IMG/VR virus record: IMGVR_UViG_3300020045_004291
Location: 28,472-92,471 of that record
Origin: a virus
Length of the DNA: 64,000 nucleotides
Strand: one strand, 5' to 3'
Positions 3,372-62,289 of the stretch are shown piece after piece. Each line of letters starts with the position of its first letter. The first letter of the stretch is position 1. Below the pieces are notes generated by a model that made no database searches, was not told the origin of the DNA, and saw nothing but the letters and a program-made list of their open reading frames with translations. The translations under genes and the position numbers were made by a program.

Positions 3372-5930
3372 TTAAGGATAGGCCGCCGTTGGAAGTGCCC
3401 AAAGGTCAGCATATTCCATCATCACAGCGGGCAAGAGTCCAGTAGCCTGGTTGTGCTGCATGTACCAACGCACATTTCCTGTACTATAGAAGTGGTTGTG
3501 ATCTAGGTTAAATTCGCTGATTTGACGCGGAAGGGGATGCTTGACTGGCGAACCCCATGCCGCACCGGTCAGACCATCTGCGCTGGTATAACTGACAAGA
3601 TCGCCCGGTGTATTTACGTAGTTAACCGAGTTTGACGTGTAGCCAGTCCCGAAGATTATCTCCACGGCCCCCGAAGGAGTAGAATAGATAGTCGGACGCG
3701 AGTAGTCAGGGAACGCTGTGACTGGGGTGCGCGTCAGGTTTGACACCTGAGTTGTGGTGGTAACACCGGCGGACGTGACCGAGATGTGATGAAGCTGGGT
3801 ATTTCCAGTTAAATCATCCTGCATGAACGCCACGTGAAGTGTTCCTGAACTATCCAAGAAAGATGAGTTCTGGTTCATATTCCGTGCGTTGGTAGTAAGC
3901 AGCAGGTCTTCATCCGCAAGGACGATAGGCAATGGATACACAGCCCCGCTACGCTTAACCCACTGGTTAGACGCTTTGAGGTACTTGGCATAATAAACGT
4001 TCGAGTTGGTGCTCCCCCCAGTCCGGTTTGTCCACGTCATGTAGATATTACCCGACGCATCGAATGACAGGGTGTTGATATACGGCCCGGATGCCCCGGA
4101 AATTGTTGTCGCAATACCGCCTAGACGCGACCATGTAGACGTTGCCTCGTCATAGACATTCATATGCACGGTGCCATTGCCCGATACACCGTCTCTGTAC
4201 ACAAACAAAAGTTGGCCGGTATCAGGAAAATTGTAGAACTGTGGATATGTGACCTGTGTCTCATTAACACCTGTCATGGTGTTAATGGGGGTCATCACGC
4301 TAGTATCATAGGCTAATGAACTCTTAGAGTAGACCATGGGCGCGCCGTGCATGTTGTTACACACATGGACAAAACCGTTACGATCTACGCCAAGTGATAC
4401 CACGTTGTGCGCGTCATCGCCGGCTTGGGTGCGGGTAAGAAGCGTCTTGCGCCACGTTACGCCCCCATCCTGCGAACGAACAATCGCCTGCTTGCGGTCA
4501 TGTTGCCACACACCGGCGTACATATTGCCGGAAGCTTCACGGAACGGTGTCGCGTATATGTTACTTTGCAGAGCGTTCCCGCCATGCTCGATAAGGGTAA
4601 CGTTTGACGGATACTGCGACTGCATAGAGGAGGGTGGTGTGGTCTTGTATGGATGACCCGCCGCTAAAACGCTCTGGATATTGTATTTGAAGGCTATAAT
4701 ACCCTCTATGATCTGTCTAAGCGAGTCGCTTAGAGCAGAAGGGAATACAAGGATCATAGCGATCCCACCATTGATGTATTGGCCTGCACCACGGCCCGCC
4801 TCGCAGATGCGGAAAGGCAGGGCGGCCTTATTAAGGGTGCCAGTGATCGTAGTGGGGGTACCGGCTACACCGTTTTTATATACAGTGATGGCTGACGCCG
4901 AGCATGTTGTAGATAGGATGGCAACCTCACCGCTTATTAGATTGGATGCGGCTGAGGCCGCAAAGGCTGTACCAGCGTCGTTAAATGCGGCGGCCCCCGG
5001 TATTGCAGATGCGTTAATGTTTATCATCTGGTTACCACGGGATGCCAGACCTGTAGCGTCCTGAGAGACAAACACCCCCTGCACCGATCCGGTTGCGGGC
5101 ACCCTATACACTGTGAAGGCTGTCCATTCTCCCGTACTGGCGCTGCATAGCTGTGCAGAAGCGGCTGTGGCCATAAAGGATGGCGATGCACTCCAAAGAT
5201 ATTTGTAACCGTTCAGTGTGTTTACGTTAACAACTGGTCGGTTAGCATCTGTGGCTTGCGTAATGTCATAAGCACTATTTGACTTATCAATCGCAGCGCT
5301 GATTTTACCAGAAGTTTCGGTCACCCACTCAGTTGTACCGAAATCCAAATCAAGTGAGGGCAAGCCAACCCGCGAATAAATCGGTGCATAGGTTGTAATG
5401 GTTGTCAGTGCCGCAACAACCGCAGAAGTTGCCGCGCTAGACGCAGAGTTTGATCCGATTAAGTTAATTGCGGCAACGTTACACGTTAAGGTGTGTCCAA
5501 TATCGCCAGTCACAGGCACATAAGTTGCTGATGTAGCGCCTGAAATTGGCGTTACGACATCAAACCAGAACCATTGGTAGGTGTATGATGTTGGAGAATT
5601 TGTCCACGTTCCATTTGTTGTTGTCAGGGTTGATCCAACCGTTGCGGAACCAGACACCACAGGAGCAACTGTGTTTACAGGAGCGCCCGCAATGCTTGAT
5701 TGACCATAAAGCGCCAAGCTCTCAAACTCGACCACAGCCTCACAGGTGATGGCCGCACCGATATCACCAGAGACAAGCGTGTAGGTGACGCTCGTTTCAC
5801 CGCTGATGTCCACGCCGTCCCGTTGCCATTGATAGGTTGGCGTAGGAGCTCCCGGCCATGCAATGACCGTTGCCCGCAGAACGGAGCCGACCGTGTTATT
5901 ACCTGTGACGACTACGCGAGTCCGTGCCAT
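3372..5930 (-). CDS. Virion-associated carbohydrate-binding/degrading protein: 2 Ig-like domains, LamG-like domain, BNR_4 (PL24-like) beta-propeller
   Basis: PVNTVAPVVSGSATVGSTLT/YQW Ig repeats; DDAHNVVSLGVDRNGFVH..NNMH and TYPQF..LFVYRDG motifs. Confidence 0.7.
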   Translation of the reverse strand: MARTRVVVTGNNTVGSVLRATVIAWPGAPTPTYQWQRDGVDISGETSVTYTLVSGDIGAAITCEAVVEFESLALYGQSSIAGAPVNTVAPVVSGSATVGSTLTTTNGTWTNSPTSYTYQWFWFDVVTPISGATSATYVPVTGDIGHTLTCNVAAINLIGSNSASSAATSAVVAALTTITTYAPIYSRVGLPSLDLDFGTTEWVTETSGKISAAIDKSNSAYDITQATDANRPVVNVNTLNGYKYLWSASPSFMATAASAQLCSASTGEWTAFTVYRVPATGSVQGVFVSQDATGLASRGNQMININASAIPGAAAFNDAGTAFAASAASNLISGEVAILSTTCSASAITVYKNGVAGTPTTITGTLNKAALPFRICEAGRGAGQYINGGIAMILVFPSALSDSLRQIIEGIIAFKYNIQSVLAAGHPYKTTPPSSMQSQYPSNVTLIEHGGNALQSNIYATPFREASGNMYAGVWQHDRKQAIVRSQDGGVTWRKTLLTRTQAGDDAHNVVSLGVDRNGFVHVCNNMHGAPMVYSKSSLAYDTSVMTPINTMTGVNETQVTYPQFYNFPDTGQLLFVYRDGVSGNGTVHMNVYDEATSTWSRLGGIATTISGASGPYINTLSFDASGNIYMTWTNRTGGSTNSNVYYAKYLKASNQWVKRSGAVYPLPIVLADEDLLLTTNARNMNQNSSFLDSSGTLHVAFMQDDLTGNTQLHHISVTSAGVTTTTQVSNLTRTPVTAFPDYSRPTIYSTPSGAVEIIFGTGYTSNSVNYVNTPGDLVSYTSADGLTGAAWGSPVKHPLPRQISEFNLDHNHFYSTGNVRWYMQHNQATGLLPAVMMEYADLWALPTAAYP

Positions 5931-5980
5931 GTTTTAAGCCCTATGTGTAATCGTTGTTTACTACGTTTTTTTAGTTGTGA

Positions 5981-6157
5981 CTAGGTTGCAATCTGGTTGA
6001 TTTCAGCGACCCTTAGAATCGACTGCTTGTTAAAAGACCAAATCTCATTATCGGTCAAATCCCACTGAGCAGCGGTTTTAGCTTCGCCGTTTATCTCAAT
6101 TTGATTTTCCGAAATCAGAATAATGGTTTGCCCATTATTTACATGTAAATTTATCAT
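5981..6157 (-). CDS. 58-aa protein coupled to the tailspike (possible chaperone); missing from the ORF track
   Basis: ATG overlaps the tailspike stop (ATGA); MINLHVNNGQTIILISENQ... Confidence 0.55.
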   Translation of the reverse strand: MINLHVNNGQTIILISENQIEINGEAKTAAQWDLTDNEIWSFNKQSILRVAEINQIAT

Positions 6158-8337
6158 ATCCGAGCTTCCACATTGATTCTAAGGGTGCCGCTTGTAACGA
6201 TCCCGCCATGGGAAAGTTGAACCGTAACGTTTGATGCATCGATAGCTACAACGTCACCAGAAACGGGGCCAATAAACAAGCCGCTTTCAGCCAAAACTTG
6301 CAATATAAGCCCCCTTTTGGTTGGCGTTCCTGCTAAGGTGTTCGGAACGTTCACATAAGAGCCGCTCGCCGGATCTGTGCCAGTAAGTACCGTCATTACA
6401 TCCGCGACCCTAAGGCCTGTGTTTAGTTTCCCGAAAAAGAACTTGTTCGGATCGGTTTGCGTAATGTTTAACTGGGCGGTCGGGTCAAAGTCGTTAGATT
6501 CTATGATGTATGGGCCACCCGAAGCCCCGTCTGAGATAGTTAGGTTAGCGTCCAAATTGGTGAAATAGTTGCCATTGATATTCACGCGGGTGGCACCATT
6601 CATGTAAATGCCGGTTGTAGAGTCGGCGAACTTGCACGCCAACACCTTCACATTGGAAGGCGCGCTTAAATCAAGAGACGTCGCGGAATGCATGAAATCG
6701 CAGGCAATGAATATGATGTCAGACATGTTTGCGCCGCCCGATGTGTCATGGTAGACGCCAGATGATGATGTGAGTGTGTTTGTTGCGATATAGCACCCCC
6801 TGAAACAGACGCTATCAATGCCGTCGTTCGAGGGCTTTAATATGACCTGCTTTCCGTTACCCTGATCGAAAGTGCAGCCATCGCAGTCAGTGTATAGACA
6901 ACTTGTAATAGTTAAGTTGTGGCCGGTACCGAACATTTTAAGCCCGATAAGATGTATCCCCTCCGGACGAGCGGAACCGTCAGAAGACCCGATCCAAATC
7001 CCATGACCGGGGCCACCCCACACACCTCCCTCGACCGTGTTTTCAATGCTGATGTGGCCAGATGTCCGGTCAAGTACGTACGCATACGCAGACGCGCCCG
7101 TTCTCAAATTTGTGAATGAAGTGTTTGTGCACTCTGTCAGAGAACCGGCTATATAAACAATCGAGTCCGGGTTGCCCGTGACCTCGCCGGTTATGTGGCA
7201 GTCCGTGATTCTGTGCCCATCATATTGCCCGCCATCAAAAACCCTGCCCGCAGATCCGAGGTGCTTTAGTGCAACCTTATCAAATCCGACAGTAGACCCG
7301 GACGCGGTGAACATGGTGATTGACTGGGTTGTTTGAAACGTGACTTGCTCAGAGCCACCGAAGGCTGTCACTCCGACGAGGCATGAACCCTGCGGAAGCG
7401 TTACAGGCGTTGAAATACTATAGGGAGAGCTTTTCGGCTTCGCCCTGATAGTTTTTACACCCGCCGCGATGGCGCGAGCAAACGTAAGGCCGTAATCACC
7501 GGCATCAGCCGTTAGATAATAGTCCTCAAGAAAGGCGTCGTCAGCGATACTGCGCTTTAAATCTAAAGCTTCCTTAATAGGCCCAGCCGTAACCTTTGTT
7601 GCATCAGAAGTGTTATCGACATTGCCCAAGCCCAAGGCAGTGCGCTGCAATGCAGCCGTCGCGGCCCCCACCACGGCACGGCCAGCAGCGGTAAAAGGTG
7701 CCATTGCCCATGTTTCAGCCGCTGTTGAGTACGGGATTTTGTCTATGCCAGAAGTCAGCGCCGCAATCGCCGCAAGATCGACGCTGTAAGCCTGAACGTC
7801 AACATTAATAACGGTTCCTGTGTTTTCACGGGCTTGAGCCTTTTGAATATCGCTCAGGCTTTGCGTAACGTCAAAACGAACCGCACCAGTGGGAACGATG
7901 GTGTAAGACGTGCCACCTTCCAGGGTTACCTCAAAGACCTGCCCATCAATCGATACGTCAATTTCATCCCCATTGGCGGTAATGGACGCACCAAAAGGTT
8001 TAACGATAAACGCCCCGCCATAAATCTTTGAGGTGAAATCAGCGGGCGATGTGACCATGAAGTCAAAGAACAGCACAGACGGATTCTGTTCATCGTCAGA
8101 ATCAACCGGCAAAGCGTCAATGTCGTCTTTTTTCACAGAAACGGTGATGTTGTTGCCTGTGAATGACAGCTGGCTTCCGTTTGTGGACGGGTCAGTTGAA
8201 AAGGTTAAAAGTATTGTGCCGTTCAGGTCTGAGTAGACAGAGAATGCACCATCGTAGCCCAGAAAGGACACGTTCTCAGGAAACGCAAAATTAAGCGTTA
8301 AATCAGCACCACGGGGGGCATAAATCTTTGCAGTCAT
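6154..8337 (-). CDS. Tailspike / depolymerase (beta-helix, pectate-lyase-like)
   Basis: LGLGNVDNTSD fibre motif followed by parallel beta-helix-like repeats. Confidence 0.8.
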   Translation of the reverse strand: MTAKIYAPRGADLTLNFAFPENVSFLGYDGAFSVYSDLNGTILLTFSTDPSTNGSQLSFTGNNITVSVKKDDIDALPVDSDDEQNPSVLFFDFMVTSPADFTSKIYGGAFIVKPFGASITANGDEIDVSIDGQVFEVTLEGGTSYTIVPTGAVRFDVTQSLSDIQKAQARENTGTVINVDVQAYSVDLAAIAALTSGIDKIPYSTAAETWAMAPFTAAGRAVVGAATAALQRTALGLGNVDNTSDATKVTAGPIKEALDLKRSIADDAFLEDYYLTADAGDYGLTFARAIAAGVKTIRAKPKSSPYSISTPVTLPQGSCLVGVTAFGGSEQVTFQTTQSITMFTASGSTVGFDKVALKHLGSAGRVFDGGQYDGHRITDCHITGEVTGNPDSIVYIAGSLTECTNTSFTNLRTGASAYAYVLDRTSGHISIENTVEGGVWGGPGHGIWIGSSDGSARPEGIHLIGLKMFGTGHNLTITSCLYTDCDGCTFDQGNGKQVILKPSNDGIDSVCFRGCYIATNTLTSSSGVYHDTSGGANMSDIIFIACDFMHSATSLDLSAPSNVKVLACKFADSTTGIYMNGATRVNINGNYFTNLDANLTISDGASGGPYIIESNDFDPTAQLNITQTDPNKFFFGKLNTGLRVADVMTVLTGTDPASGSYVNVPNTLAGTPTKRGLILQVLAESGLFIGPVSGDVVAIDASNVTVQLSHGGIVTSGTLRINVEARI

Positions 8338-8361
8338 TGAGAAACCCCATATACAATAGTA

Positions 8362-8523
8362 ATGCTGTTCATGTTTTTATTTCTGTTCTTTTCCGGCGAT
8401 CCGTTGCAGTGGGCGCTCATTGCGGTTGTCCTTCTTCTGCAATTGCCCCTGTGGCGTATGCTGGAAGACTTAGGCTCTGTTGTGCCTGTGGAAGCGAGAT
8501 CATTGGATAGGCCGCAGGTGTAA
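8362..8523 (+). CDS. 53-aa hydrophobic membrane peptide antisense to the ejection gene (candidate superinfection exclusion)
   Basis: MLFMFLFLFFSGDPLQWALIAVVLLLQLPLW...; TTGCAG-18-TACAAT directly upstream. Confidence 0.5.
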   Translation: MLFMFLFLFFSGDPLQWALIAVVLLLQLPLWRMLEDLGSVVPVEARSLDRPQV

Positions 8524-10993
8524 CCCGTGGCACATAGGCCCCTAAACGGATTCCTTGCGCCAGTTGCTTAGAACGATCAAGGCGCAACTGAGCCGCAGCC
8601 AGTGAGGCGTTATAATCCCCCATGGCAAGATCAGCATATGCCGATATAACGTCCTCGGCATCCGTTCCAAGAATTGCCTTGTTTGCCCTGCGCAGGGCCG
8701 CCTCTTCCCACCTGGCAACCCGTTGCGGGCCGATAATGGCCTTAAGTAGCCCAGCCTTATCAGTTGGCAATTCTGTGAGCGTTCCCAGATCGGCATTAAT
8801 GCTGTTTGCACCCTCCAAAAGTCGAGAGGTCTTGGAATTGGTGTTGGGCATTAACGACATGGCCGACACACGAGCGCGTTCAACGTCTGCAATCTGCGTC
8901 AGAAAGGATTGCACCTGATCAGCGCGGCCAGCCCGTTGCCCAAGCATGAGCAAGCGTTGTTGTGCATTGCGCGTCAGGTATTTACCTAGATTGACATTGC
9001 CCTCAAGCGCGCCAGATATACGCCCGCCTGTTGCTGTGGCCAGATCGTCGCCAATCATTGCAAGAGCGCCGTTCAGTTCAGGAGCGCTCAGTGATTCAGC
9101 CCACTGGGCAAAGTCTGAATTGCTACCCTGACCAAAAACCTTTTGACGTGCAGCACGAGCCGCAGCCTCAAGGCGTGGGGCCTCCCCGCCGATTTCACGT
9201 GCACCGGCATAATTACGCATTTCACCCGTTACGGGATCGGTGACCTCAAGGCCCTTGTTGATTTCGTCCATTTGACGCACCAGTTCGCGGCGCGTCGTAT
9301 CGACGGCAATCAGGTCGTTCTTGTTAGCATTAGGGCTTTCAATAATGCGGCGCTCAATGTCATCAAGATTGCGCTTGGCGGCATCCAGTAATTGCAGCGT
9401 GGGTGCTTGAACCGTCTTTGTGCCGCCAATAGTGCCAGGATATACCCCGCCCGTTTCAGCCAGTTGTGACAATGACGCTAGTTCAGCGTCATCAGCCGCG
9501 AGAGCCGCTGCAATCTGTTGAGGCGTGGCGCGGTCTGGAATGTTTAGAGTACCAAGACGTTGCTCCAATTGGCTCAGATACTCAGCACGGTCAGCGCCGC
9601 CACTTGCCGCAGCCATGGAGCGAATTGGTCGACCCGACAGGCCGGAATTGATAGCGTCAAGCAATTCGCGCTCTGTGGGAATATCGCGGAAGTAACCCGC
9701 CTCTTGCGCTTGGCGGGCGACATCATCAAGGCTTTGACCAGTGGCGCGTGTAAGCTTGCCCATGCCACGCCCCCGGTTCAACGTCACGTCACCGGCACCC
9801 ATAGAGCGCAGGTCGCCGCCACGGTCTATAATCCCGCCACGCGCCGCCACAAATTCATTCAGGGTAGGGCCATCGGACCGCGCAGCCTTTTTGACGCCAC
9901 CACCAAGTAACTCACGCACATCAGCCAGATATGCCCCTGCATCGCGTGGCGCACCAGCCGTGAGGCCTTCGGGAAGATCAGGAACGTCAACGCTTGCAAA
10001 AGGCTTAACGCCTTGCCCCTGCATTTGACGCACACCCTCTTTTAAGGCATCGCGAGCAAATGGGTTTGCGGTTAGCAACTCATCTAAGACCGGCGAGGAT
10101 TGCGGGCCAGCTTGTGCAAACAGATCATTGTAAACCGGATTGGCACGGGCGCGCATCTGCTCAGCAGTTTCACGCACACCGCCCGCCGCCATAGCCGGAT
10201 CAATGCGCATTGTGTTCTGATATGCACCCATTGCTGCCGTAGGAGATTGAGCAACCCGCGATTCCAGTTCGTTGCGCAGAATTTGCGCTACTTCTGGATT
10301 AAGGTTTGCCGCAGCCTCAAGGCGATTGCGCGCCCCTTGACCCATGACTTCAGCGGCCATTTGTGGCTGTGACGATTTGCGAGGCGGGCCGGACTTCTTG
10401 GCCGATTTCAGCGCCGCCGCGTTATCTTTCATGAACAGTTCAGCCGCTTTGCGCTCTGCAATCTGGGCCGGTGTAAGTTTGACAACAGCCGCCTTTGCGA
10501 CCTTCGGGGGCGCAGACACGGGGAATTTAAGCCCCTTGGCTGGCATTGCGCCAGACAGAGCCATTCCTAAATCTTGCTCGATCATCTGGGCTTGCTCTTC
10601 GGGGGACGCATCGACGTATTGTGCGCCGTATCCCATAAAGCCACCACCTACCTTTTTCTTTGGTGGCCCCATACCTGCGTTCGCGATACCCTCAGACACG
10701 GGACGCAATAGCGCATGCTGCACACCAGCGATAGGTGACAACAGGACGTTTAACGCATCACCGCCCTGTTGCAAGGAATCCGTAAAGCCCTCAGCAATTC
10801 CTTGAATAGGGTTTGCAGGAAGTGGCGCGTTCATGCGCTTATTCAGGTTTTCGCCATATTGCTTTATGGCACCGCCAATGGTTCCACCAATGTCAGTTAT
10901 ATACGACTTTTCAGCCGCAGCCTTTACAGGTTTAGCGGATGATGGGTTAAACCCATTCTTCAAAGGCTTTGCACTTGACGGGTCAAACGCCAT
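8417..10993 (-). CDS. Large DNA ejection / internal virion protein
   Basis: 858 aa, Ala/Gly/Gln-rich, last of the ejection cluster; N-terminal FDPSSAKP repeat. Confidence 0.7.
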   Translation of the reverse strand: MAFDPSSAKPLKNGFNPSSAKPVKAAAEKSYITDIGGTIGGAIKQYGENLNKRMNAPLPANPIQGIAEGFTDSLQQGGDALNVLLSPIAGVQHALLRPVSEGIANAGMGPPKKKVGGGFMGYGAQYVDASPEEQAQMIEQDLGMALSGAMPAKGLKFPVSAPPKVAKAAVVKLTPAQIAERKAAELFMKDNAAALKSAKKSGPPRKSSQPQMAAEVMGQGARNRLEAAANLNPEVAQILRNELESRVAQSPTAAMGAYQNTMRIDPAMAAGGVRETAEQMRARANPVYNDLFAQAGPQSSPVLDELLTANPFARDALKEGVRQMQGQGVKPFASVDVPDLPEGLTAGAPRDAGAYLADVRELLGGGVKKAARSDGPTLNEFVAARGGIIDRGGDLRSMGAGDVTLNRGRGMGKLTRATGQSLDDVARQAQEAGYFRDIPTERELLDAINSGLSGRPIRSMAAASGGADRAEYLSQLEQRLGTLNIPDRATPQQIAAALAADDAELASLSQLAETGGVYPGTIGGTKTVQAPTLQLLDAAKRNLDDIERRIIESPNANKNDLIAVDTTRRELVRQMDEINKGLEVTDPVTGEMRNYAGAREIGGEAPRLEAAARAARQKVFGQGSNSDFAQWAESLSAPELNGALAMIGDDLATATGGRISGALEGNVNLGKYLTRNAQQRLLMLGQRAGRADQVQSFLTQIADVERARVSAMSLMPNTNSKTSRLLEGANSINADLGTLTELPTDKAGLLKAIIGPQRVARWEEAALRRANKAILGTDAEDVISAYADLAMGDYNASLAAAQLRLDRSKQLAQGIRLGAYVPRVTPAAYPMISLPQAQQSLSLPAYATGAIAEEGQPQ

Positions 10994-11715
10994 TATTCAC
11001 GCCACTTTCCATCACCAAGATATGTTGCTTGGTTGCCGTTCGCATCAGTGTAGGTCTGGCCTTTGACAAACTTGTCACCAGACGCCTTGCGCGGTGGAGA
11101 CTTGCCACCGGTTGAGGTGTAATTACGTTGACGCGCCGGGACATAACCCGCCGCCTTTTCCTTTGCGCGCTTTGGCATCCAATAAGAATCAAAAGCCGTT
11201 TCAGCACCGATCAGAGAACCCTTTTCAGCGGCGTATTGATCAAGGAAGGCCTTGCGGGCTTGCGCTTCACGGGCCTTTTCCTGAATATTCCGAGACGCAG
11301 CCGCGTTTGCGTTTCCGTACTTTTCAATAGACGGAAGCGCAAGCTTCATGCCCTTATATTCAATATCAGACGTAGCGCCCGAACCTGGGGCGCGTTGCTG
11401 TGGAGCCAATTCGTTATTAATGGCTTCCATCTGCTGCAAATTTTCGCCCTTAAAAAGATTTACGGGGTTAAAGCCCCATAGACCGTTACCATAAACCGGC
11501 CCCGTTGGCGCTTTTGCGTTGAGCTTTTCAAACTCTTTCAGGCGCGTTGCTGTATATGGCAGTGTGTTAGATGCCACGCCCGCCTCAGCAAGTGTTGCCT
11601 GATCAGCCGCCGTCAGTTTTGGCGCACCGGTTGTTTTTGTCGCCGGAACCCACTGGCCACCCTTGACGACATACTTACCGCTTGGAGATACCGCCCCTTC
11701 TTCATATTTTGCCAT
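10993..11715 (-). CDS. Ejection / internal virion protein
   Basis: Synteny, composition, coupled stop/start. Confidence 0.6.
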   Translation of the reverse strand: MAKYEEGAVSPSGKYVVKGGQWVPATKTTGAPKLTAADQATLAEAGVASNTLPYTATRLKEFEKLNAKAPTGPVYGNGLWGFNPVNLFKGENLQQMEAINNELAPQQRAPGSGATSDIEYKGMKLALPSIEKYGNANAAASRNIQEKAREAQARKAFLDQYAAEKGSLIGAETAFDSYWMPKRAKEKAAGYVPARQRNYTSTGGKSPPRKASGDKFVKGQTYTDANGNQATYLGDGKWRE

Positions 11716-11721
11716 TGTGCG

Positions 11722-16966: not shown

Positions 16967-16980
16967 AAGTTATCCCTTGG

Positions 16981-17008: not shown

Positions 17009-17016
17009 GCAGGTTA

Positions 17017-17970: not shown

Positions 17971-17971
17971 T

Positions 17972-29260: not shown

Positions 29261-29263
29261 TGT

Positions 29264-49472: not shown

Positions 49473-49481
49473 GTCAGCCCC

Positions 49482-50405: not shown

Positions 50406-50451
50406 TTAAAACACCTTTGTAAAGCGTGGCGAAACACGCCATACTTGCGGC

Positions 50452-53841: not shown

Positions 53842-54521
53842 TACAGATACGTTGTCCCCCGTTGACCCCAGCCAGACAAAGCATTAGACGTGCCAGATTG
53901 ACCCAAGCCTTTAAATAACGTGCTTGTTCCGCCTGTAAGCGCGCTAAGGCCCATTTGCTCGATTTGGTTTAGCCCGCCCTGCACCGTGCCCCACAAGCCT
54001 TGGTTAATTGCCCCGTTGGCTGTCTTGTAGGACGCCTCAGCATTACCTTTGCCAATCAGATTGTTGCCGTACGAATTGGCGTAGTTTTGACCATACCCCG
54101 CCAAGGCGTTAACTGATGACTGCCCAAGATTGGCAAGGCCCGATTGACGATCCCACCAGTTGCCATATTCCGCCGAGGCTGTATTTTGCCCGCGATCTTG
54201 CAGGGCAGACAGGGCCGCGCCACTGTTAAGCATGCCGCCAGTGGCATAATTGTTTGTTACCGCCTTTTGACCCTCGCCAAAGCGGTAAGCATAGTCAGGG
54301 CTGGCCTGAAAGCTTGACGTTGGGTCATTCAGGGCCGCAAGCGCATTCGTGCCGGTTGAAATATACGGCTGATAATTGGCGCTCGTGGTGTTGTATTGCG
54401 AAGTTAACTGCGCATTAGCGGCGTCAATAGCCTTTTGCTGCGCCTCAAGCGCTTGCTTGTTGGCCTTTTTTGCCGAATTGGCACCCAAGACGCTCGTAAA
54501 GATATCCGAAAAGAAAGACAT
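53841..54521 (-). CDS. DNA transfer/pilot protein (P22 gp7-like)
   Basis: YQPY..G..AL, FQASPDY.Y, GGMLNSGAAL motifs. Confidence 0.75.
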   Translation of the reverse strand: MSFFSDIFTSVLGANSAKKANKQALEAQQKAIDAANAQLTSQYNTTSANYQPYISTGTNALAALNDPTSSFQASPDYAYRFGEGQKAVTNNYATGGMLNSGAALSALQDRGQNTASAEYGNWWDRQSGLANLGQSSVNALAGYGQNYANSYGNNLIGKGNAEASYKTANGAINQGLWGTVQGGLNQIEQMGLSALTGGTSTLFKGLGQSGTSNALSGWGQRGTTYL

Positions 54522-54655
54522 TACGGCTCCAAAGCTTTGATGCGCGCCTCTAGTGACGCAATATACTCTTGAAGTAGCGACAAATAAAGCACAATCTCAG
54601 GGCTGAACTGTGTCTTATAGCCCATAGGCAATCTGGGTTGTTGAATCGTGGCCAT
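54521..54655 (-). CDS. 44-aa tail peptide; missing from the ORF track
   Basis: Coupled at both ends; ends SLEARIKALEP. Confidence 0.55.
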   Translation of the reverse strand: MATIQQPRLPMGYKTQFSPEIVLYLSLLQEYIASLEARIKALEP

Positions 54656-56010
54656 TAGCGCGTATCCTCATCTAAAACTAGGTTTTGTGGGCAGAACGGC
54701 ACATTTTCAGCACACCGCACCTGATACACGCGACCAAAGGCCGACCGCTGACCCAAAGCCCGCCATGTGGGCTTAACCCAATACTCACCAATCCCGCCCA
54801 TGGATTCCGCCATCCACTCGCTGAACTCATAGCCGCCGTCGTCTGAATAGCGCATCTCAACCTGAGGATCGACAACAGTCGTAAGGCCACCAGGGGCACG
54901 AGATGACATAAGAACGGCGGATGAATTGCGCGCCTTACCGCTTGATAGTGGGTAATACCCCGAAACAATGCGGTCTATGTGCGCCTCCGTGTCTGCGTTA
55001 ACCGTGCTGTCAAAGCGGTATACAGAACCAGACGACATATCCCCCGCGTAGGTAACGCCGTCTTTGACTATCGTACCGACGATTGACAGGCTTAAATTCT
55101 GATAGCGATTCCAGCGATACCAGTTTGCACCATCAAACACATATGACGCCGTGTCTTTGTCGGTCAGAATGAAGAACTCTTTCCCGTCAATGAACAAGCT
55201 ACACAGGCTGATATTCTCAAGCGGAGCATATTGCAGGGATTCCAGTACGCTATCGTCTGCAATGGGCGTTAACCCACCAGCCAACAGGAACAACTGGCGA
55301 TCTTTTGATAGGAAATAGATACGACCTGCCCGCTCGTAAACGCTGTCACGGCTAAACGCTCCCGTGTCCAATGTGCTTTCAGGGTTCGGCTTAAATGGTA
55401 TCGTTGAATCGCCTGTTGTATACCAAAGCTCAATCGTGTCAGAGCCGAAGATGTAAAGGCTCTTGCCGGAGATGGCCGCCGCAAGAAATCCGTCTGGTTT
55501 GGCCTCAGCCGTGGCGAACGACAGGCCACTAATATTTGACGGCTCGTTGATTTCCGACCAGTAAAACCGCCCCAGATTGCCGAAATAAAGCCAGCGGTTG
55601 TCAAAGAATTTCACGTCATAAATCAACGTGTCATCAGGGATTGCAACACTCGACACCACACCGCCTGTGTATTTATACACAAGCCCGCCATTGGCGACCC
55701 ACACAAGGCAGTCATTAGCGCCGTCAAATCCGCCAGCAATGCGCGCGTTATCCTCACCGGCCAGCGTGGCTATAATGGCGCTTTCCCGAAACACTTGCGC
55801 ACCAGAGATATAAAATCGGTCACTGTTAAAAAGGCCAGCTTGGTAAAACATACCGCGAATCTGGCCCGATCCCTTGGTCTCATAATCGACAATCGCAGGG
55901 CGATCAAAGAACGCCCCAACCTTATCATCCCACCATACGTTTTTACACGGAAGCCTCAACAGACCCGTGCGGCGTTCATGGTGTGACGTGCTGAATTGAA
56001 TAGTTGGCAT
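54655..56010 (-). CDS. Packaged DNA stabilization protein (P22 gp10-like)
   Basis: FATAEAKPD, IFGSDTIE.W, YSDDGG..W..G..GEY..W..LG. Confidence 0.85.
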   Translation of the reverse strand: MPTIQFSTSHHERRTGLLRLPCKNVWWDDKVGAFFDRPAIVDYETKGSGQIRGMFYQAGLFNSDRFYISGAQVFRESAIIATLAGEDNARIAGGFDGANDCLVWVANGGLVYKYTGGVVSSVAIPDDTLIYDVKFFDNRWLYFGNLGRFYWSEINEPSNISGLSFATAEAKPDGFLAAAISGKSLYIFGSDTIELWYTTGDSTIPFKPNPESTLDTGAFSRDSVYERAGRIYFLSKDRQLFLLAGGLTPIADDSVLESLQYAPLENISLCSLFIDGKEFFILTDKDTASYVFDGANWYRWNRYQNLSLSIVGTIVKDGVTYAGDMSSGSVYRFDSTVNADTEAHIDRIVSGYYPLSSGKARNSSAVLMSSRAPGGLTTVVDPQVEMRYSDDGGYEFSEWMAESMGGIGEYWVKPTWRALGQRSAFGRVYQVRCAENVPFCPQNLVLDEDTR

Positions 56011-56648
56011 TAAAACCACCGCGCAATATCATTAAAGTCGTCTGCCGGTGTCTTGGGCTGAAACCTTCCGCTATAACGAGCGGTCATTGCCCGTTGAGCC
56101 GTGTCATATGCCATACCCAATTCTTGTGATACGGGAAGCCCATAAAGTGGAGCAATCGATACCGCAAGCATGGCCTCAAGGTGCATGTGCATCGCCGCAT
56201 CCAGCGGCACAATGCCAGTAGGCTCTAAATTGTGTACTTGAATCCAATGGCCTGTATCGGCGCGATAGGCATAATAGACATTATCATCGCCCTGTTGTGC
56301 ATATACAGCCACACGGGCACCGTCGCGGGGTGCAACGTAGTAATCACCGGTTTTTACCGTAAAGCCATCAGATTCATACGTGATGACCGGCTGATAAAAA
56401 TTCAACTGAGGCAGTGTTACGGTTACGGTAACATCACCAATAACGGCGATGCGCTCATCATCGCCCGCTGTGTAGTCCTGATTTATCTCTATGTTGTTCC
56501 ATTCCGTCCACCCAGGCAGGGTGCGAATAAGAGACGAAAGGCGGTCAAGGCATACGTCAAGATCATGCGCCGCAGGAACGGCACGAATGGCAATAGCCCC
56601 TATGGAGAGCATTGCAGTTTTAATGATTTGAAGGTTTGTTTGGGCCAT
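56010..56648 (-). CDS. Head-tail adaptor (P22 gp4-like)
   Basis: IIKTAM..IG, LAVSIAP.YG; follows the capsid gene. Confidence 0.7.
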   Translation of the reverse strand: MAQTNLQIIKTAMLSIGAIAIRAVPAAHDLDVCLDRLSSLIRTLPGWTEWNNIEINQDYTAGDDERIAVIGDVTVTVTLPQLNFYQPVITYESDGFTVKTGDYYVAPRDGARVAVYAQQGDDNVYYAYRADTGHWIQVHNLEPTGIVPLDAAMHMHLEAMLAVSIAPLYGLPVSQELGMAYDTAQRAMTARYSGRFQPKTPADDFNDIARWF

Positions 56649-56662
56649 GATCCACCAATAGT

Positions 56663-56689
56663 AAAAGGGGGCTAGCCGAAGCCAGCCCC
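56663..56689 (-). terminator. Intrinsic terminator after capsid gene B
   Basis: GGGGCTGGC-TTCG-GCTAGCCCC-CTTTT on the minus strand. Confidence 0.85.
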
Positions 56690-56696
56690 GCAGGTT

Positions 56697-57737
56697 TTAG
56701 ACAGCCAGAGCGCCGACGTAGCCAGTCAGCACGCCATGGTCTTTGCCATTATATATCAGCTTTTCGACGCCAATCATTTCATGGATGCCAACGCCCTTGA
56801 CAAACCCATAATCGCGGGTGTCGGTTGTTGACTTTGTACGCTGTGCCCAAGCCACACCCAAAGCCTGAACGCCACACAGGAAGTATGGTTCCAGTCGGGC
56901 GGACGACGCACCAACCGTTCCGATGGTGGCGATTTCCTGAATCTTGCGGATGATAACACCATCCCACATCAGGTCTCCGTCATTCCACAGCGGGTTGCTG
57001 TCGCCGCGCTCTTGTGCGTTTTGCAAAGAGGTTGCCAAGTCGGTTTTCAGATCGCGGAAAGCGCCGGAACCAACGAACATGACATATGTTTCGCTGTCTT
57101 CGCTAACGGTCACAGGGCCGATGATCGGGGACGCGGTTTCAGCGCGGGCCTTAGCTTGTGACACCACTTCCTTTGTCAGCTTCATAGACGCCGTTACCAG
57201 CAGCAGGTCAGCCGAGTGGTCAGTGTAAGCGCCAACACCCGTGCCAAACAGAACGCGGTCAGAGTTGGCAACCAGCCACGCATCCTTAACAGCCTCAGAG
57301 GCAGAGCCGTAAGCGGTGCCTGATTTAGACGCCAACGCCGTGATGATGTCGGTGCGCAACTTTTTCATTGCCCACTTTTTCAACATAGGCTTAGCGGCGT
57401 CACGCAGACCAATGCCCGTAAACTGCTGGTCGTTGTCAGTGACGGCGACAGCGTGACGACGAGTGGCGACCTCGATCTTGTGACCGTAGTTACCAAGCGC
57501 TTCTTCGTTGCCTTCAAGCAGGCCGTTGCCTGTTTGGCCAGCGCCAACCAGTTCGCCAACGAGGGGAATGGTGATCCCGTCGCCTGCTTTTTTGGTCAGG
57601 TCTTCTTTAACCTGGATCACTGCATTTTCATCAGTGCCCATGTAGCGCTTAAAGCGGTTTTCGCGGACGTATGAGGTGAAAAAGTTGTTGTCCCATACCT
57701 CTTCGGTATTGGCGGCGGCGACAGTTGTAAAAGCCAT
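56697..57737 (-). CDS. Major capsid protein (DUF4043 / N4 gp56-like family)
   Basis: DLTKKAGD.I, LEGNEEAL, RHAV, LCGVQAL, DYG, DHGV motifs. Confidence 0.85.
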   Translation of the reverse strand: MAFTTVAAANTEEVWDNNFFTSYVRENRFKRYMGTDENAVIQVKEDLTKKAGDGITIPLVGELVGAGQTGNGLLEGNEEALGNYGHKIEVATRRHAVAVTDNDQQFTGIGLRDAAKPMLKKWAMKKLRTDIITALASKSGTAYGSASEAVKDAWLVANSDRVLFGTGVGAYTDHSADLLLVTASMKLTKEVVSQAKARAETASPIIGPVTVSEDSETYVMFVGSGAFRDLKTDLATSLQNAQERGDSNPLWNDGDLMWDGVIIRKIQEIATIGTVGASSARLEPYFLCGVQALGVAWAQRTKSTTDTRDYGFVKGVGIHEMIGVEKLIYNGKDHGVLTGYVGALAV

Positions 57738-57764
57738 TGTAGTAAATCCTTATGAGTGCGGGCC

Positions 57765-58493
57765 TTAGCCTCGCAATATGTCATTTAAAGACGGCGGGGG
57801 CTGTACAGCGCTGCCAGTAGACCGGCCAGACTGCGCGCCCGCCAACGATGCGGGAAACTGTTGGGAGACCGGGGCTTGTGCTTGCGCTTGTTGCGTAAGT
57901 TCCGCTCTGATCTTTTCAGTTAAACGAGCCTCAAGTGTCGCCACATCTGTTGCGCCGAGTTCCTGCATCATTTTGTGGCTTTTGGCGATTTGATACGCCT
58001 TATTCCACGGATGCGGGTCTGCCTGACATTGCTGTTTCAGTGATGGGTTTTGATCCATCAAAGACAAGAATGTGTTTTTCATGTCTTCAAAATCTGGATG
58101 CGCTTGACGGGCAAGCATTTCCGACATTTCGACACGCGCGTTTAGTGTGGCTTCCTGAACGGCCTGACTTACAACATTGTTGCCGAAATTGTTTTGCCAT
58201 CCCTGTTCATCCTCAAAGATAGACGGGGGCGGTTCTGCAATGGCGGCGGCTTCAAATGCGGCAAGACGTGCCTCTGCCTCTTGGCGGCGGCGGCGTTCAG
58301 CAATGAGGGCGGGGTGTTCAAGGTCTGGCTGACGCTGTTCGACGGGCGCAGGCGACGCGCTCTCTGTTTCGCCCTTCGGTGCAAACTTGCCGGTTTCGTC
58401 GCGTGGCTGTGCGGGTTCCTCAACCTGCTCAACTGTTGATTCTTCGGCTTGTTCAAACGGTTCGTCAGATAAAATATCGTCAAGAGTAGACAT
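57765..58493 (-). CDS. Scaffolding protein
   Basis: LDDIL..RDETGKFA..AERRRRQ..LNDIL. Confidence 0.8.
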   Translation of the reverse strand: MSTLDDILSDEPFEQAEESTVEQVEEPAQPRDETGKFAPKGETESASPAPVEQRQPDLEHPALIAERRRRQEAEARLAAFEAAAIAEPPPSIFEDEQGWQNNFGNNVVSQAVQEATLNARVEMSEMLARQAHPDFEDMKNTFLSLMDQNPSLKQQCQADPHPWNKAYQIAKSHKMMQELGATDVATLEARLTEKIRAELTQQAQAQAPVSQQFPASLAGAQSGRSTGSAVQPPPSLNDILRG

Positions 58494-58510
58494 GTGTAAC
58501 AATCCCTATA

Positions 58511-58563
58511 CGCCCGAAACGGCGGCGACCCGTTTAACGCCCGTGAAACCCCGGCGACGGGTT
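58511..58563 (-). promoter_or_regulatory. Tandem hairpin/pseudoknot leader of the scaffold gene
   Basis: Two units of stem-GTCGCCG-stem followed by GGGCG. Confidence 0.6.
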
Positions 58564-58574
58564 AGCAGTGTGAC

Positions 58575-60437
58575 CTATTGGACACCCTGAAACTGTGGTG
58601 GTGGCATTTGCTCAGGCGCACCAACGGGCGCAGCGGCTGGCAATTGCACACCGGCTTTAACACCCTCAAAGAGGGGTTTTAACTGTTCATTTCTCGTTTG
58701 CGCGGCAAGCTTCGCGGTCTCTGCTTCGGTCTTATTAACCTCAGCCACAGCCCCGCGCATCTGCACTTCCTGCATGGGGTTTGGTTGTGACGCGCCTTGC
58801 TTATCTTTCTCGATAAGCTGTAAAATCTTCTCTTTGTTGCGCAGACCAGACGCCTCAACCATCATTTCAAACATTAATGGAATCTTGTCTGGTGGCGTGA
58901 TAGGCGCAAGCTTAGTCAATTGCTCAAACTGCTCAATCTGCAATGTGGCCGTATCCACAACCTCATCCATGTTAATATCAACATCCATCTCAGCAACTGA
59001 GTTCATCTTCTCAGCCATAGTCGGGTCGCTCATGATTTGCATTTCGTATTGCGCAGCGGTCTGCTCATCAAGCTGACCAGCCTTGACAGCATCCGCCAAT
59101 TTACTCATGGCGGCATGACCCTTGGTGATATTCATACCCACAAAGCGCACATTTTTTTCATCGTCGGTGACGCGCACCCAACGCTCTGCCGTCCACACCT
59201 GACGTATGCGATTCCATATTGCCCGATAAACACGCACATTAAAATGGCGCAACGCATCCAGCATTGGGGCCATTTCCGTCATGCCGCCTTGCTGCAAAGC
59301 CAGAATAGCGCGCCCTGATTGGTCTTGGCCAGACTTACCTTGCATGGTGGCGTTTGGGCCTGTGGCCTGAATTGCCGCCTTGGCCTCTGCCAGCAGATTA
59401 AAATGACCCGCAGCCAGATCGCCCTGACTAATTATCTCAATCTCCCCAGGATCAGCAACAATCACAGCGTCGGGTTGCGCCATCTGTGTTTTAATGCGCG
59501 CCTCGTCCGTCTGCATGGCGCGGCTAATGCGGTATTGACGCGTGTTTGACAAATGCAGGAATTTAGACCGGCGCTTGTTAACCTCGTCCTGAAGCGTGAT
59601 AAAGTCTCGCACAATCCCATAGCGGTCGTTGTCACGGTCAACATTTGCAGACTGCAATATCAGCGCGCAATCCGGGCGACCCTCCTCGTCCATGTAGGGC
59701 GATGGCGCATATGGCTCTAACTCACCTGCCAGCGTGAACACGGCACGATACCACCCGCCATCACCCACGCAATACATGGTGACAATGCGCACACGCTTAC
59801 GCTTGGAATCAGCCCAATACGTCCATTTAGGCTTATCCTCATAGGTATCATATGCTGACCCCGTGGGCTTGGCTATTGTGGCGTCAATTACGTCCTTAGC
59901 CTCTGGCCAGCGACGCTTTGCTGTTGATGCGTCCATCCATGTGATAAATCCCACATATTGCGCGTCTGAAAAATCAGGGGATGAACTGTGTGGATCATAA
60001 AAAATGCGATCCCACGGGATATATTCAACAGATGGATCGTATTGATTGCGGACTTGCTTAACTATAACCTCAACGCCGCCTACACCCTCAACCATCATGT
60101 TGTTAAACACCCATGATCGTTTAATAGCAAAGTTTTGGTCTTCGCAGACGTACCTCAAGGCGTCCGTGGCGGCGTTAGCGTCGTCTTCGTGCTTGGCAGT
60201 GCGCGGATACGCCTTTGGGTCTGTACGCCCCTGACGCTCAAGCCCACACAGATAATCAATCTTGGGGCGTATCAGGTTCTCAATGACAATGGGCTGCTTG
60301 CGACGGTTCAGCGCCTTGATTTGCGTGTCAGTTAACTGTTTACCGTCAACATAGTCGCGTGCTTTTTCAGCTTCGGCCCGCGCATTGACGGTTGCCTCTT
60401 CGGATTCCTCGAATTTGCGCACGAGATCAGTCAGCAT
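58575..60437 (-). CDS. Portal protein (P22-like), divergent from portal A
   Basis: YVDGKQ..P...N.IRP.ID...G; DPHS..DFSDA; QDEVNKRRSK; SGRAI..QQ. Confidence 0.88.
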   Translation of the reverse strand: MLTDLVRKFEESEEATVNARAEAEKARDYVDGKQLTDTQIKALNRRKQPIVIENLIRPKIDYLCGLERQGRTDPKAYPRTAKHEDDANAATDALRYVCEDQNFAIKRSWVFNNMMVEGVGGVEVIVKQVRNQYDPSVEYIPWDRIFYDPHSSSPDFSDAQYVGFITWMDASTAKRRWPEAKDVIDATIAKPTGSAYDTYEDKPKWTYWADSKRKRVRIVTMYCVGDGGWYRAVFTLAGELEPYAPSPYMDEEGRPDCALILQSANVDRDNDRYGIVRDFITLQDEVNKRRSKFLHLSNTRQYRISRAMQTDEARIKTQMAQPDAVIVADPGEIEIISQGDLAAGHFNLLAEAKAAIQATGPNATMQGKSGQDQSGRAILALQQGGMTEMAPMLDALRHFNVRVYRAIWNRIRQVWTAERWVRVTDDEKNVRFVGMNITKGHAAMSKLADAVKAGQLDEQTAAQYEMQIMSDPTMAEKMNSVAEMDVDINMDEVVDTATLQIEQFEQLTKLAPITPPDKIPLMFEMMVEASGLRNKEKILQLIEKDKQGASQPNPMQEVQMRGAVAEVNKTEAETAKLAAQTRNEQLKPLFEGVKAGVQLPAAAPVGAPEQMPPPQFQGVQ

Positions 60438-60467
60438 GTTACACCATTGTCCGCATATGTTGCATAA

Positions 60468-61895
60468 TTACACGGTTGTCCAGTCGTTGTCCATAGGCTC
60501 ATTTATGGCGTAGTCCTGCCGCCTGGTGTTTATTTGTGGCGTTCGCACTATTGCAGGGTGCGCCTGATCAATAACGCGCCCCATGAGCGTAGCCGTGTCA
60601 ACATCATCGTCGTGTTTACCAGCGGGGAAACTTAGAAACTCTGACAGGTCAGCCCCGGTCTCCATAAAAACCTTACCCATTGACGCCATGGCCTGAAATG
60701 ATCTTGCCCGTGTGGGTTTGTCGTGTATGGACGACACCCATTCAAGACGGCAAAAAACACGGCGCTCCATCATGCGGCGCTTTAGCATTGGTTCTACGGC
60801 CTTTTGGATAACGCCACCCTCTCCAAACCACGCGAGGGGCTTGTGCTTGGCCATCAGGTTCAGTTTCTCTTCGATCCACACATCAGCAGACGTCTGACCG
60901 CGCCATCCGTCAAGTCTATATATGTTGCCCTGTGGACACACCCCCCAAACACGATGCACGGTGTAATCGCCGCCGTTGTCTGTCACGGCATAATCAGACG
61001 TGCCATATATCGCCAGATTGGCGGGCCGGATTGTCCACTTCTTAAACCAGTCGCGCAGGAAAAACGACCCTTCATCAGGTTGCGGTCTCTGCATGTATAG
61101 CGCAGACCACTCGCGCTGGCCTATGGTGCGTTTAATTTCGTTTAGGCGCTCAATGGGGTATCTCTCAGGCCATAGAGCAATTCCATCGTCGGATATAGCC
61201 GGGAGGCTCAGAACGTCCCATTGATCCGCACCGGTCTCCATCTTGTCTATGAGTTTGCCGCTCAGGTCATCCTCGTGCCAGCGTGTTTGAATAATAACCA
61301 CGCGGCCCCCAGGGCTCAATCTGGTGTACGCTGTTGACCTGTACCACTCCCACACACGACGCCGTGTAGCCTCGCTGTCCGCCTCCTGCCTGTCCTTAAA
61401 CGGGTCATCTATCAGTAGCAGATCAGCGCCCCGGCCTGTTGCAGCAGTACCTACACCAACGGCCCGATATGCGCCGCCGTGTGTTAATCGCCAGCGATCA
61501 GCAGCGCGGTCATCTGATTTCAGACCAACGCCATTAAATACGCGCGAAAATTCCTCAGAGCCGACAATTCCGCGCACCTCCCGTCCAAAATCTGAGGCTA
61601 GATCGCTGTTGTAACTCGCCGCGATAACCTCAAGCGTCGGGTTTTTGCCCATAAACCATGCCGGAAACCGTCTGGATGCCAACTCAGATTTACCATGACG
61701 TGGTGGCATAAATATCATCAGGCGCTTACAGTCGCCACGCTCGACGGCTTCCAATTTTGAGGCGATCAACTCATGATGCGGCGCACTGTCGTAGCTGGGC
61801 AGCGTGTATCTTGTAAACCCCAGCATGGAGTTTTTAGCGTGACGGCGCTTTAATAGTTCAGCCGCCGCCTCTTGTGGCGATAGCTGCAAGCTCAT
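60468..61895 (-). CDS. terL: Terminase large subunit (Terminase_6 type)
   Basis: MPPRHGKS, GRGADLLLIDDP, TRWHEDDL, HDDDVD. Confidence 0.92.
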   Translation of the reverse strand: MSLQLSPQEAAAELLKRRHAKNSMLGFTRYTLPSYDSAPHHELIASKLEAVERGDCKRLMIFMPPRHGKSELASRRFPAWFMGKNPTLEVIAASYNSDLASDFGREVRGIVGSEEFSRVFNGVGLKSDDRAADRWRLTHGGAYRAVGVGTAATGRGADLLLIDDPFKDRQEADSEATRRRVWEWYRSTAYTRLSPGGRVVIIQTRWHEDDLSGKLIDKMETGADQWDVLSLPAISDDGIALWPERYPIERLNEIKRTIGQREWSALYMQRPQPDEGSFFLRDWFKKWTIRPANLAIYGTSDYAVTDNGGDYTVHRVWGVCPQGNIYRLDGWRGQTSADVWIEEKLNLMAKHKPLAWFGEGGVIQKAVEPMLKRRMMERRVFCRLEWVSSIHDKPTRARSFQAMASMGKVFMETGADLSEFLSFPAGKHDDDVDTATLMGRVIDQAHPAIVRTPQINTRRQDYAINEPMDNDWTTV

Positions 61896-62289
61896 CGTCC
61901 GTCATCTCCACAGCACGTTTTACGTTAACAGACATGTCAATGCTGGCAGCCTGTTTATCAACCACCAAGCCATTAAGCTTGGCGTAGTCCATCAGGGCGG
62001 CCCTTGCTACCGATCCAGACGGAGCGTCCTCATTAACCGCAAAGCGATCATGCAATGATGCGAGGCGATTAAGTATATCAGTCTTTCCCCAAACAGCCGA
62101 AGCCTCAGCCTTTCGGTTCATCTCCGCTACGCGCTTGTTAATGCTTGCACTGGCTTGCAGCAACTTTGTGCTCGCCCCCCGTGCACCGTTTGGCGAATAA
62201 CCGGCGTCAATATACGCTTTTTCTTGAGACTTTCCCTCAAAAATCCCCCTCGCGAACGCTTCATGCCGCGAATTTGCCAAGACAGGCAC
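61858..62289 (-). CDS. terS: Terminase small subunit (copy B, different C-terminus)
   Basis: Near-identical to TerS A up to LVVDK, then QAASID..MTDDELAAIA. Confidence 0.88.
   Translation of the reverse strand: MPVLANSRHEAFARGIFEGKSQEKAYIDAGYSPNGARGASTKLLQASASINKRVAEMNRKAEASAVWGKTDILNRLASLHDRFAVNEDAPSGSVARAALMDYAKLNGLVVDKQAASIDMSVNVKRAVEMTDDELAAIATRGGG

Follow-up and report, generated by a model that had tools for sequence, protein, structure and literature searches.

Two unrelated virion gene sets, one SU10-like and the other P22-like, occupy the same phage backbone in an uncultured virus from IMG/VR (record IMGVR_UViG_3300020045_004291). The window, that is, the whole 64,000-nt stretch analysed here, is the right-hand end of a 92,471-nt metagenome contig (record positions 28472-92471; G000:C1), which is listed as linear with a completeness of 100%; positions below are those of the window unless the record is named. 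The two gene sets follow one another head to tail, and we assign a probability of roughly 0.86, judged from sequence, to the reading that this arrangement was produced by the assembler running on through co-occurring sister phages. On that reading we infer that no physical molecule joins the units.

Module A (3372..22702, minus strand) encodes a large terminase (TerL) assigned to Terminase_3 (21434-22702), a portal matching SU10_portal (19221-21341, E = 2.1e-150), a scaffold-position gene (17972-18925), a major capsid protein matching SU10_MCP (PF17236; 17017-17970, E = 8.3e-81), a tail-fibre-domain protein (15053-15748) and a BNR_4 tailspike (3372-5930), along with further structural proteins and large proteins of 858 and 727 aa. 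Portal and major capsid protein are thus both of the SU10 type. The SU10 genome measures about 77 kb; since unit A, at about 40 kb, is shorter than that, the likeness to SU10 is limited to the module. Module B (45354..61895, minus strand) is P22-like, with a TerL of the Terminase_6N family (60468-61895), a portal matching P22_portal (58575-60437, E = 2.9e-103), a scaffold-position gene (57765-58502), a capsid protein (56697-57737), a head-closure-like protein (54655-56019; phrog_578, head closure Hc3), an ejection-like protein (53841-54521; phrog_598, ejection protein), a tail collar fibre (49482-50405) and genes in the tail or tailspike position (45354-49472). Its capsid protein matches Phage_capsid_3 (PF13252), not a P22 coat family. 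PF17236 and PF13252 are the former DUF5309 and DUF4043, respectively. A comparison of the two TerL proteins gives only E = 0.46. Both modules look short-tailed.

By self-BLAST, modules A (3372-22767) and B (45354-61954) have in common only a 116-nt tail-fibre patch (70.7% identity) and a 34-nt terminator, and an 86-aa tail-fibre domain forms the only A/B protein pair in an all-against-all BLASTP comparison. The terminator is intrinsic, lies directly after the module A capsid gene (16982..17015, minus strand) and matches 56663-56696, behind the unrelated capsid gene of module B, at 33 of 34 nt. With the family assignments, these comparisons agree with the proposal that one chassis carries two wholly different virion modules.

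Around the modules the picture is reversed, in that self-BLAST of the window reveals five stretches common to units A and B: 45-3370 and 42042-45354 (89.6% nucleotide identity over 3.35 kb), 22768-23087 and 61955-62274 (91.9%), 25346-25706 and 62358-62717 (70%), 25973-26249 and 63560-63835 (94.9%), and a 121-nt element, V2, at 26583-26703 and 63880-64000 (100%). The collinear backbones align over 16.2 kb at 91.4% and are about 90-92% identical overall, so the description of them as near-identical was too strong. In its first copy (45..3370), the block to the left of the modules comprises a non-coding stretch (45-440), a GH24 lysozyme gene on the plus strand (505-1098) and a minus-strand lysis cassette made up of small genes (1091-2632), a GH24 endolysin gene (2611-3090) and a holin gene with its ATG at 3370; lysozyme and endolysin both match Phage_lysozyme. 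At gathering thresholds, no Rfam family was found in the non-coding stretch or elsewhere in the window. The second copy of the block (42042..45354) has its lysozyme gene at 42512-43105 (plus strand) and its endolysin and holin genes at 44592-45074 and 45064-45354 (both minus strand). To the right of the modules, the small terminase gene terS (22704..23138 in unit A and 61858..62289 in unit B, minus strand) has an N-terminal core (Terminase_2) common to both units and a C-terminal tail specific to each module. The small minus-strand genes between terS and V2 (23132..26479) form a stretch that is itself mosaic; an HNH endonuclease gene (23868-24389) and a gene for a 145-aa protein occur only in the unit A copy. 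Beyond V2 lies the second copy of the replication and early region (26939..41882), which matches the copy lying upstream of the window at 87-98% identity and encodes a Prim-Pol/PriCT_2 protein (26939-29260, minus strand), AAA_24, DUF669, a YqaJ exonuclease, a helicase and a GcrA-like regulator (35045-35812, minus strand), followed by variable small genes at 37.6-41.9 kb.

As in a modular mosaic pair, the non-homologous virion modules therefore stand between collinear backbones of high identity, with sharp breakpoints at the borders of genes or domains. On the left, alignment places the swap exactly at the holin ATG, as the first-pass annotation had stated, at a point where this ATG and the stop codon of the final tail gene overlap. 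On the right, it falls inside terS after the residues LNGLVVDK (at about 22768 in A and about 61955 in B), at a domain border, and the C-terminal tail switches together with TerL.

The full record extends this pattern, as its self-BLAST resolves about 2.3 units, all in direct orientation, with offsets of 37.3-42.1 kb. They belong to three units (A', A and B), not to the two proposed earlier. Record positions 1-10881 match 39264-50144 at 93.1% (A' against A), early regions match each other at 87-98%, and unit B joins at 70.5 kb of the record. The suggestion that another variant precedes unit A was borne out, as an A-type module, A', lies upstream of it (93% identity to A, and a TerL of a third type). 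The circular A-B heterodimer with which that sequence was said to be consistent is contradicted by the same observation, because in such a circle module B would precede the early region before unit A. Successive units are 87-98% identical rather than identical, and between them TerL or the entire virion module is replaced. The differences between copies fall mostly at third codon positions (in the portal gene, 170 nucleotide differences lead to only 17 amino acid differences), which indicates that the copies are diverged lineages and neither replication copies nor sequencing errors. A replication concatemer or terminal redundancy of one phage was rejected, given that successive units differ.

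The ends of the contig point to how the units came to be joined. The first 121 nt of the record recur internally (V1, 10793..10913; record 39264-39384), with a single SNP at the base right after the 121-nt match. The last 121 nt of the contig are the third copy of V2 (63880..64000), a 121-mer identical in all three units (also record 15549-15669 and 55054-55174), and directly upstream of it copy B diverges from both other copies. Exact-pattern scans for V2 in viral contigs and in metagenome contigs found nothing. Matches of exactly 121 nt at both contig ends, each shared with internal copies, are the mark of a path through a de Bruijn graph with k = 121. Another exact match of maximally 121 nt (1260..1380 and 43267-43387) is, apart from V2, the sole exact stretch of at least 121 nt common to the two copies of the left-hand block, and it is possibly a crossing point in the graph. 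A plain unitig of the MEGAHIT style was rejected, as 665 121-mers are repeated in the contig and its exact internal repeats reach 514 nt; internal exact repeats above 121 nt indicate that the assembler performed some repeat resolution, perhaps with read pairs. The path must then come from a repeat-resolving assembler or a scaffolder, and some joins may be read-supported.

In the mechanism that we propose, the contig would be a k = 121 de Bruijn path of about 2.3 turns round a tangled graph, formed by three or more phages of roughly 37-40 kb that occur together, are mosaically related and lack an integrase. Their common backbone (about 91% nucleotide identity) would consist of the Prim-Pol replication genes, the lysis block, the N-terminal part of terS and a small intergenic element, and each phage would carry one virion module, SU10-like or P22-like, in the interval from the holin start codon to mid-terS. 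The circles of the variants would touch in the graph wherever 121 nt or more match exactly between them, and the assembler would have run from one variant into the next, halting when it met V2 for the third time. Cut at V2, the contig yields one circle of 39,505 nt with module A and another of 37,297 nt with module B, although the phasing of early regions with virion modules, including in these circles, is presumptive rather than proven.

Comparison with relatives is consistent with this reading. Contigs with an A-type or B-type TerL measure about 37-46 kb, and, as in concatenated-genome artefacts, the present contig is far longer than its relatives, consists of repeated direct units and ends on graph vertices, that is, on exact repeats of fixed length. 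The closest relative of the backbone, an independent IMG/VR record (G001), likewise continues past its own circle, into 4,567 nt of a second copy that is 99.3% identical. An exact-protein cluster look-up found the window's proteins on no contig but the 92,471-nt JGI/IMG one, with one further lysozyme variant on a JGI/IMG contig of 19,131 nt; megablast of both window halves gave no match among cultured phage records, and no public sequencing runs were listed as holding window positions 40401-50400. The closest relatives of the B-type TerL include a provirus (G003) and a locus in a 963,594-nt Sphingomonadaceae contig that is taken to be a prophage, and the host is probably an alphaproteobacterium.

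Contigs in IMG/VR with genomes repeated 2.0-6.8 times have been described as probable assembly artefacts, and terminal repeats with lengths equal to assembler k values have been reported (PMC8116208). The present record has in common with these multi-copy contigs a length more than twice that expected, a directly repeated gene order and end repeats of length k (PMC8116208), but it differs from them in holding three variants (89-94% identical) in which whole modules are replaced. Mosaic phage variants are known to share unitigs and to be inseparable by assemblers (PMC10104058). Like the 'phage bubbles' of that study, the co-occurring variants here share module-sized unitigs and differ in others (PMC10104058); in contrast to them, our contig is unbroken at branch points and follows a single path through several variants.

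Among the alternatives, a real heteroconcatemer or cointegrate, formed when co-infecting sister phages recombine within their shared backbone and faithfully reported by the contig, survives best, with a slim chance of being correct. The units have the same orientation and are joined seamlessly in homologous backbone, recombination between the three copies is evident from their mosaicism, and the YqaJ-type exonuclease suggests that the phage may have a recombination system of its own; moreover, a transient heteroconcatemer arising from co-infection would yield the same short-read graph. Against this, linkage over 40 kb is beyond what a k = 121 short-read graph can establish, both contig ends lie on graph vertices, three different variants rather than two would have to stand in a row, packaging would cut such short-lived molecules to unit length, and the relatives are single units of 37-46 kb. 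Slimmer still is the chance of the stronger claim, namely that such a co-infection product is one replicating element with both the SU10-like and the P22-like virion gene sets.

It is likewise highly improbable that the shared chassis is itself chimeric, with module B taken from an unrelated phage and grafted by the assembler via short shared stretches. Local chimerism would be conceivable in a record that is a multi-variant path, but module B is flanked on both sides by backbone specific to its variant (the second block copy at 89.6% and terS at 91.9% relative to the A copies), the nearest exact stretches of at least 121 nt are 43267-43387, about 2 kb to the left, and V2 on the right, and breakpoints at the overlap of holin ATG and tail-gene stop and at the terS domain border are biologically sensible. 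Least probable of all is polylysogeny, in which related prophages or episomes would stand in tandem within a single host genome or plasmid. Related prophages are known to line up head to tail at one attachment site, and the relatives of the B-type TerL include the provirus and the presumed Sphingomonadaceae prophage, but 92.5 kb contain no host genes among the ORFs examined, no tRNA and no tyrosine or serine recombinase (PF00589 and PF00239 were absent from the whole record and gave matches in control genomes, and no resolvase was found), att-like repeats were not seen at the borders of the units, where inter-unit homology fades in and out, and the contig ends are k-mer vertices internal to the phage.

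The first-pass annotation had likewise reported neither integrase nor host gene in the window, and had offered sister phages joined by the assembler as one of two options; the 121-mer ends, the three non-identical units and the lack of a recombinase favour that option. It had also judged a complete head-and-tail swap between near-identical phages to be noteworthy. The swap is present on one backbone, the backbone copies being about 91% identical, and it belongs to a known kind of mosaicism; three co-occurring mosaic phages with one backbone are a clean but ordinary case of such module exchange. The Streptococcus thermophilus phages Sfi21/Sfi19 and Sfi11 pair replication modules of a single type (MV/BV) with different morphogenesis modules (MV1 versus BV2) (PMC8470116, Table 1), and there too whole virion modules are exchanged on a shared backbone; those phages are cultured and infect a Gram-positive host, whereas ours are uncultured and have two modules that both appear short-tailed, one SU10-like and one P22-like. 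Likewise, P22-like and ES18-like lambdoid Salmonella phages have related early genes and very different virion assembly genes, and hybrids between them form by homologous recombination in shared sequence (PMC10307801). They differ from the present phages in being temperate with integrases, none of which was found here, and in the extent of the shared part, which here, at about 91% nucleotide identity, also takes in the lysis cassette and half of terS.

A record listed as one complete 92-kb virus thus probably represents two or three phages, each of about 37-40 kb, and such records make genomes in virus catalogues look larger and richer in genes than they are. Its 21-mer frequency is only 1.13, low because the copies are non-identical, and is expected to lie below the CheckV duplication check; with copies of this kind, the usual k-mer test is unlikely to flag the record. 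Cheap detection is offered by the two contig ends, both of which are exact repeats of fixed length found elsewhere in the same contig. For the phages themselves, the record documents a clean natural module exchange, in which a single backbone for replication and lysis occurs with either an SU10-like or a P22-like module, and with three different large terminases. The known picture of phage evolution is unchanged by this exchange; its breakpoints, which coincide with a start codon and with the domain border of terS, are useful for the study of which recombination joints phages tolerate.

The SU10-like virion genes at window positions 3372-22702 (module A) and the provisionally P22-like virion genes at 45354-61895 (module B) are two non-homologous modules carried in one shared backbone, as the first-pass annotation had proposed and as self-BLAST, protein comparison and family matches confirm. 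In self-BLAST of the window, backbone copies align at 45-3370 and 42042-45354 (lysis-region blocks 1 and 2; 89.6%, 3.35 kb), 22768-23087 and 61955-62274 (91.9%), 25346-25706 and 62358-62717 (70%), 25973-26249 and 63560-63835 (94.9%), and 26583-26703 and 63880-64000 (100%), while the only similarities between 3372-22767 and 45354-61954 are a 116-nt patch of tail-fibre sequence and a terminator of 34 nt. No protein-level similarity between the modules was found apart from an 86-aa tail-fibre domain, and their large terminases (TerL) give a BLASTP E of only 0.46. Module A encodes Terminase_3, SU10_portal (E = 2.1e-150), SU10_MCP (E = 8.3e-81) and a BNR_4 tailspike. In module B the matches are Terminase_6N, P22_portal (E = 2.9e-103), a capsid protein of the Phage_capsid_3 family and not of a P22 coat family, a head-closure-like protein (phrog_578), a tail collar fibre and an ejection-protein family. 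Directly 3' of the two unrelated capsid genes lies an intrinsic terminator (16982-17015 and 56663-56696; 33/34 nt alike) with a 9-bp GC stem, a UUCG loop and a U run, which may be a common regulatory element or a recombination joint within otherwise non-homologous modules.

The left breakpoint of the swap is exactly the holin ATG, as had been read from the sequence; in unit B (backbone plus module B) the last tail gene ends in a stop codon that shares bases with this ATG. The right breakpoint lies within the small terminase gene (terS), whose products in units A and B are almost identical through ...LNGLVVDK and then unrelated. Common to the units are replication genes (a Prim-Pol/PriCT_2 protein, AAA_24 ATPase, DUF669, YqaJ exonuclease, helicase and GcrA-like regulator) and lysis genes (two GH24 lysozymes and a lysis cassette). 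The second lysozyme, on the + strand at 505-1098 and 42512-43105 (97% amino acid identity), is opposite in strand to the lysis cassette and has an N-terminal extension; another JGI/IMG contig, of 19,131 nt, carries a third variant, which falls into one 90%-identity cluster with them. The whole record lacks tyrosine and serine recombinases, in agreement with the reported absence of an integrase, and control genomes did give matches; no tRNA was found, nor any Rfam family at gathering score. Between terS and a 121-mer common to all three units (V2), small genes are mosaic irrespective of virion type (23132-26479, 62127-63835 and record 12349-15408): a 230-aa gene is shared by the upstream unit and unit B (95% amino acid identity) and missing from unit A; an HNH endonuclease (23868-24389) and a 145-aa gene occur in unit A only. 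V2 itself (26583-26703, 63880-64000 and record 15549-15669), AT-rich with repeated GATCAGTAA-like motifs, lies between the 3' end of the Prim-Pol gene and the start of the late-strand genes and is 100% conserved across the three variants in surroundings that differ by 5-30%; it may serve in regulation, as an origin or in packaging.

The window, bases 28472-92471, makes up the right two thirds of one virus record of 92,471 nt, listed in IMG/VR as linear and given a CheckV completeness of 100. When the full 92.5 kb are compared with themselves by BLAST, about 2.3 units appear, not the two first described. An incomplete A-type virion module fills record 1-10881, with 93.1% identity to module A at record 39264-50144, and is followed by terS, V2, early region 1 (the first replication-gene copy), block 1, module A, V2, early region 2, block 2, module B and V2. 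The TerL gene of this upstream unit (record 10642-12003, - strand, upstream of the window) encodes a Terminase_6N ATPase with 42% identity to TerL A across 343 aa and no relation to TerL B, yet the adjoining portal has 98% identity to portal A, so the terminase alone has been swapped.

The head-to-tail arrangement is, with a probability of about 0.86, an assembly product. The record's first 121 nt equal record 39264-39384 (window 10793-10913), the next base being a single SNP, and its last 121 nt equal record 15549-15669 and 55054-55174 (window 26583-26703), directly before which copy B differs from both other copies. The record thus starts on the 121-mer opening a variant bubble and stops on the 121-mer at which copy B rejoins the two other copies. 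At ~7% divergence, even one end placed at random would match exactly over 121 nt with a chance of only 0.93^121, about 1.5e-4, and the same exact length at both ends points to the assembler's k. According to the CheckV paper, the lengths of terminal repeats in IMG/VR cluster at the k values of assemblers, and where a contig contains a genome 2.0-6.8 times, an assembly artefact is the probable cause (PMC8116208); concatemers of small phages were discarded from a wastewater study for the same reason (PMC10747093). The 21-mer frequency of the record is only 1.13, which may be why it escaped flagging. The situation is the one described in the Phables paper, in which co-occurring mosaic phage variants with common unitigs and differing module-sized ones are inseparable for assemblers (PMC10104058). 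From this graph signature, rather than from reads, we infer that the units would not be physically joined.

The first-pass annotation, right about a shared backbone with two modules, had offered two readings of their join: sister phages linked by the assembler, or a real cointegrate, consistent with a circular A-B heterodimer. Such a heterodimer would put module B before early region 1; the record refutes this, because an A-type module is found there. Sequencing error is ruled out, and so is a replication concatemer (its units should not differ at all), by copies differing mostly at third codon positions with few amino acid changes (portal, 170 nucleotide changes, 146 of them third-position, and only 17 amino acid changes; helicase, 98 and 13): the copies are real, diverged lineages.

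Cut at V2, the record separates into two circles: early region 1, block 1 and module A together make up 39,505 nt, and early region 2, block 2 and module B make up 37,297 nt; contigs bearing relatives of either terminase are about 37-46 kb. The circles align over 16.2 kb at 91.4%, a whole-genome nucleotide similarity of ~38% by our own estimate, so they are not the near-identical phages first supposed. This phasing is proposed as the simplest only, since the variants also meet in further exact matches of at least 121 nt (for example, 514 nt in the early region and a 121-mer at 1260/43267). Independently of phasing, module B is truly placed in this backbone and not grafted, because variant-specific backbone copies flank it on either side, with no exact shared 121-mer within ~2 kb leftward.

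The searches brought up no close relative: megablast matched none of the cultured phage records, and IMG/VR protein relatives reach 69% identity at most. The closest backbone relative, G001, has replication genes in the same order (Prim-Pol, 63-64% identity), lacks both portal types, and carries a 1,547-aa protein and another structural gene set; the backbone therefore occurs with a third virion module too. In this 46,179-nt record (loci L171-L173), the opening stretch 1-4567 is repeated at 41614-46179 (29 mismatches, 1 gap; 99.3%), giving a true size of ~41.6 kb; it is over-assembled, wrongly classed as linear, and an independent case of the same overrun into a variant copy. A repeat array of 129-nt period lies at 2615-3493 of G001, inside a 501-aa gene. 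Proteins of the window occur on a single JGI/IMG contig only, besides the lysozyme variant on the 19,131-nt contig, and no public sequencing run is listed as containing the junction. Among cellular genomes, the best B-type terminase match (65%) lies within a 963,594-nt contig of a Sphingomonadaceae bacterium, in what is taken to be a prophage; together with the GcrA-like cell-cycle regulator homologue of the early region (35045-35812, - strand; PF07750, E = 6.9e-11), it hints at an alphaproteobacterial host.

The biological content of the record is co-occurring mosaic sister phages. Like the Streptococcus thermophilus phages Sfi19/Sfi21 and Sfi11, which have one replication module type and different morphogenesis modules (PMC8470116), they swap a whole virion module on a common backbone. 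Such exchange is classical phage mosaicism, already known; what is new here is a further example, in which an SU10-like module is paired with a P22-like one and three types of terminase occur within one sample.
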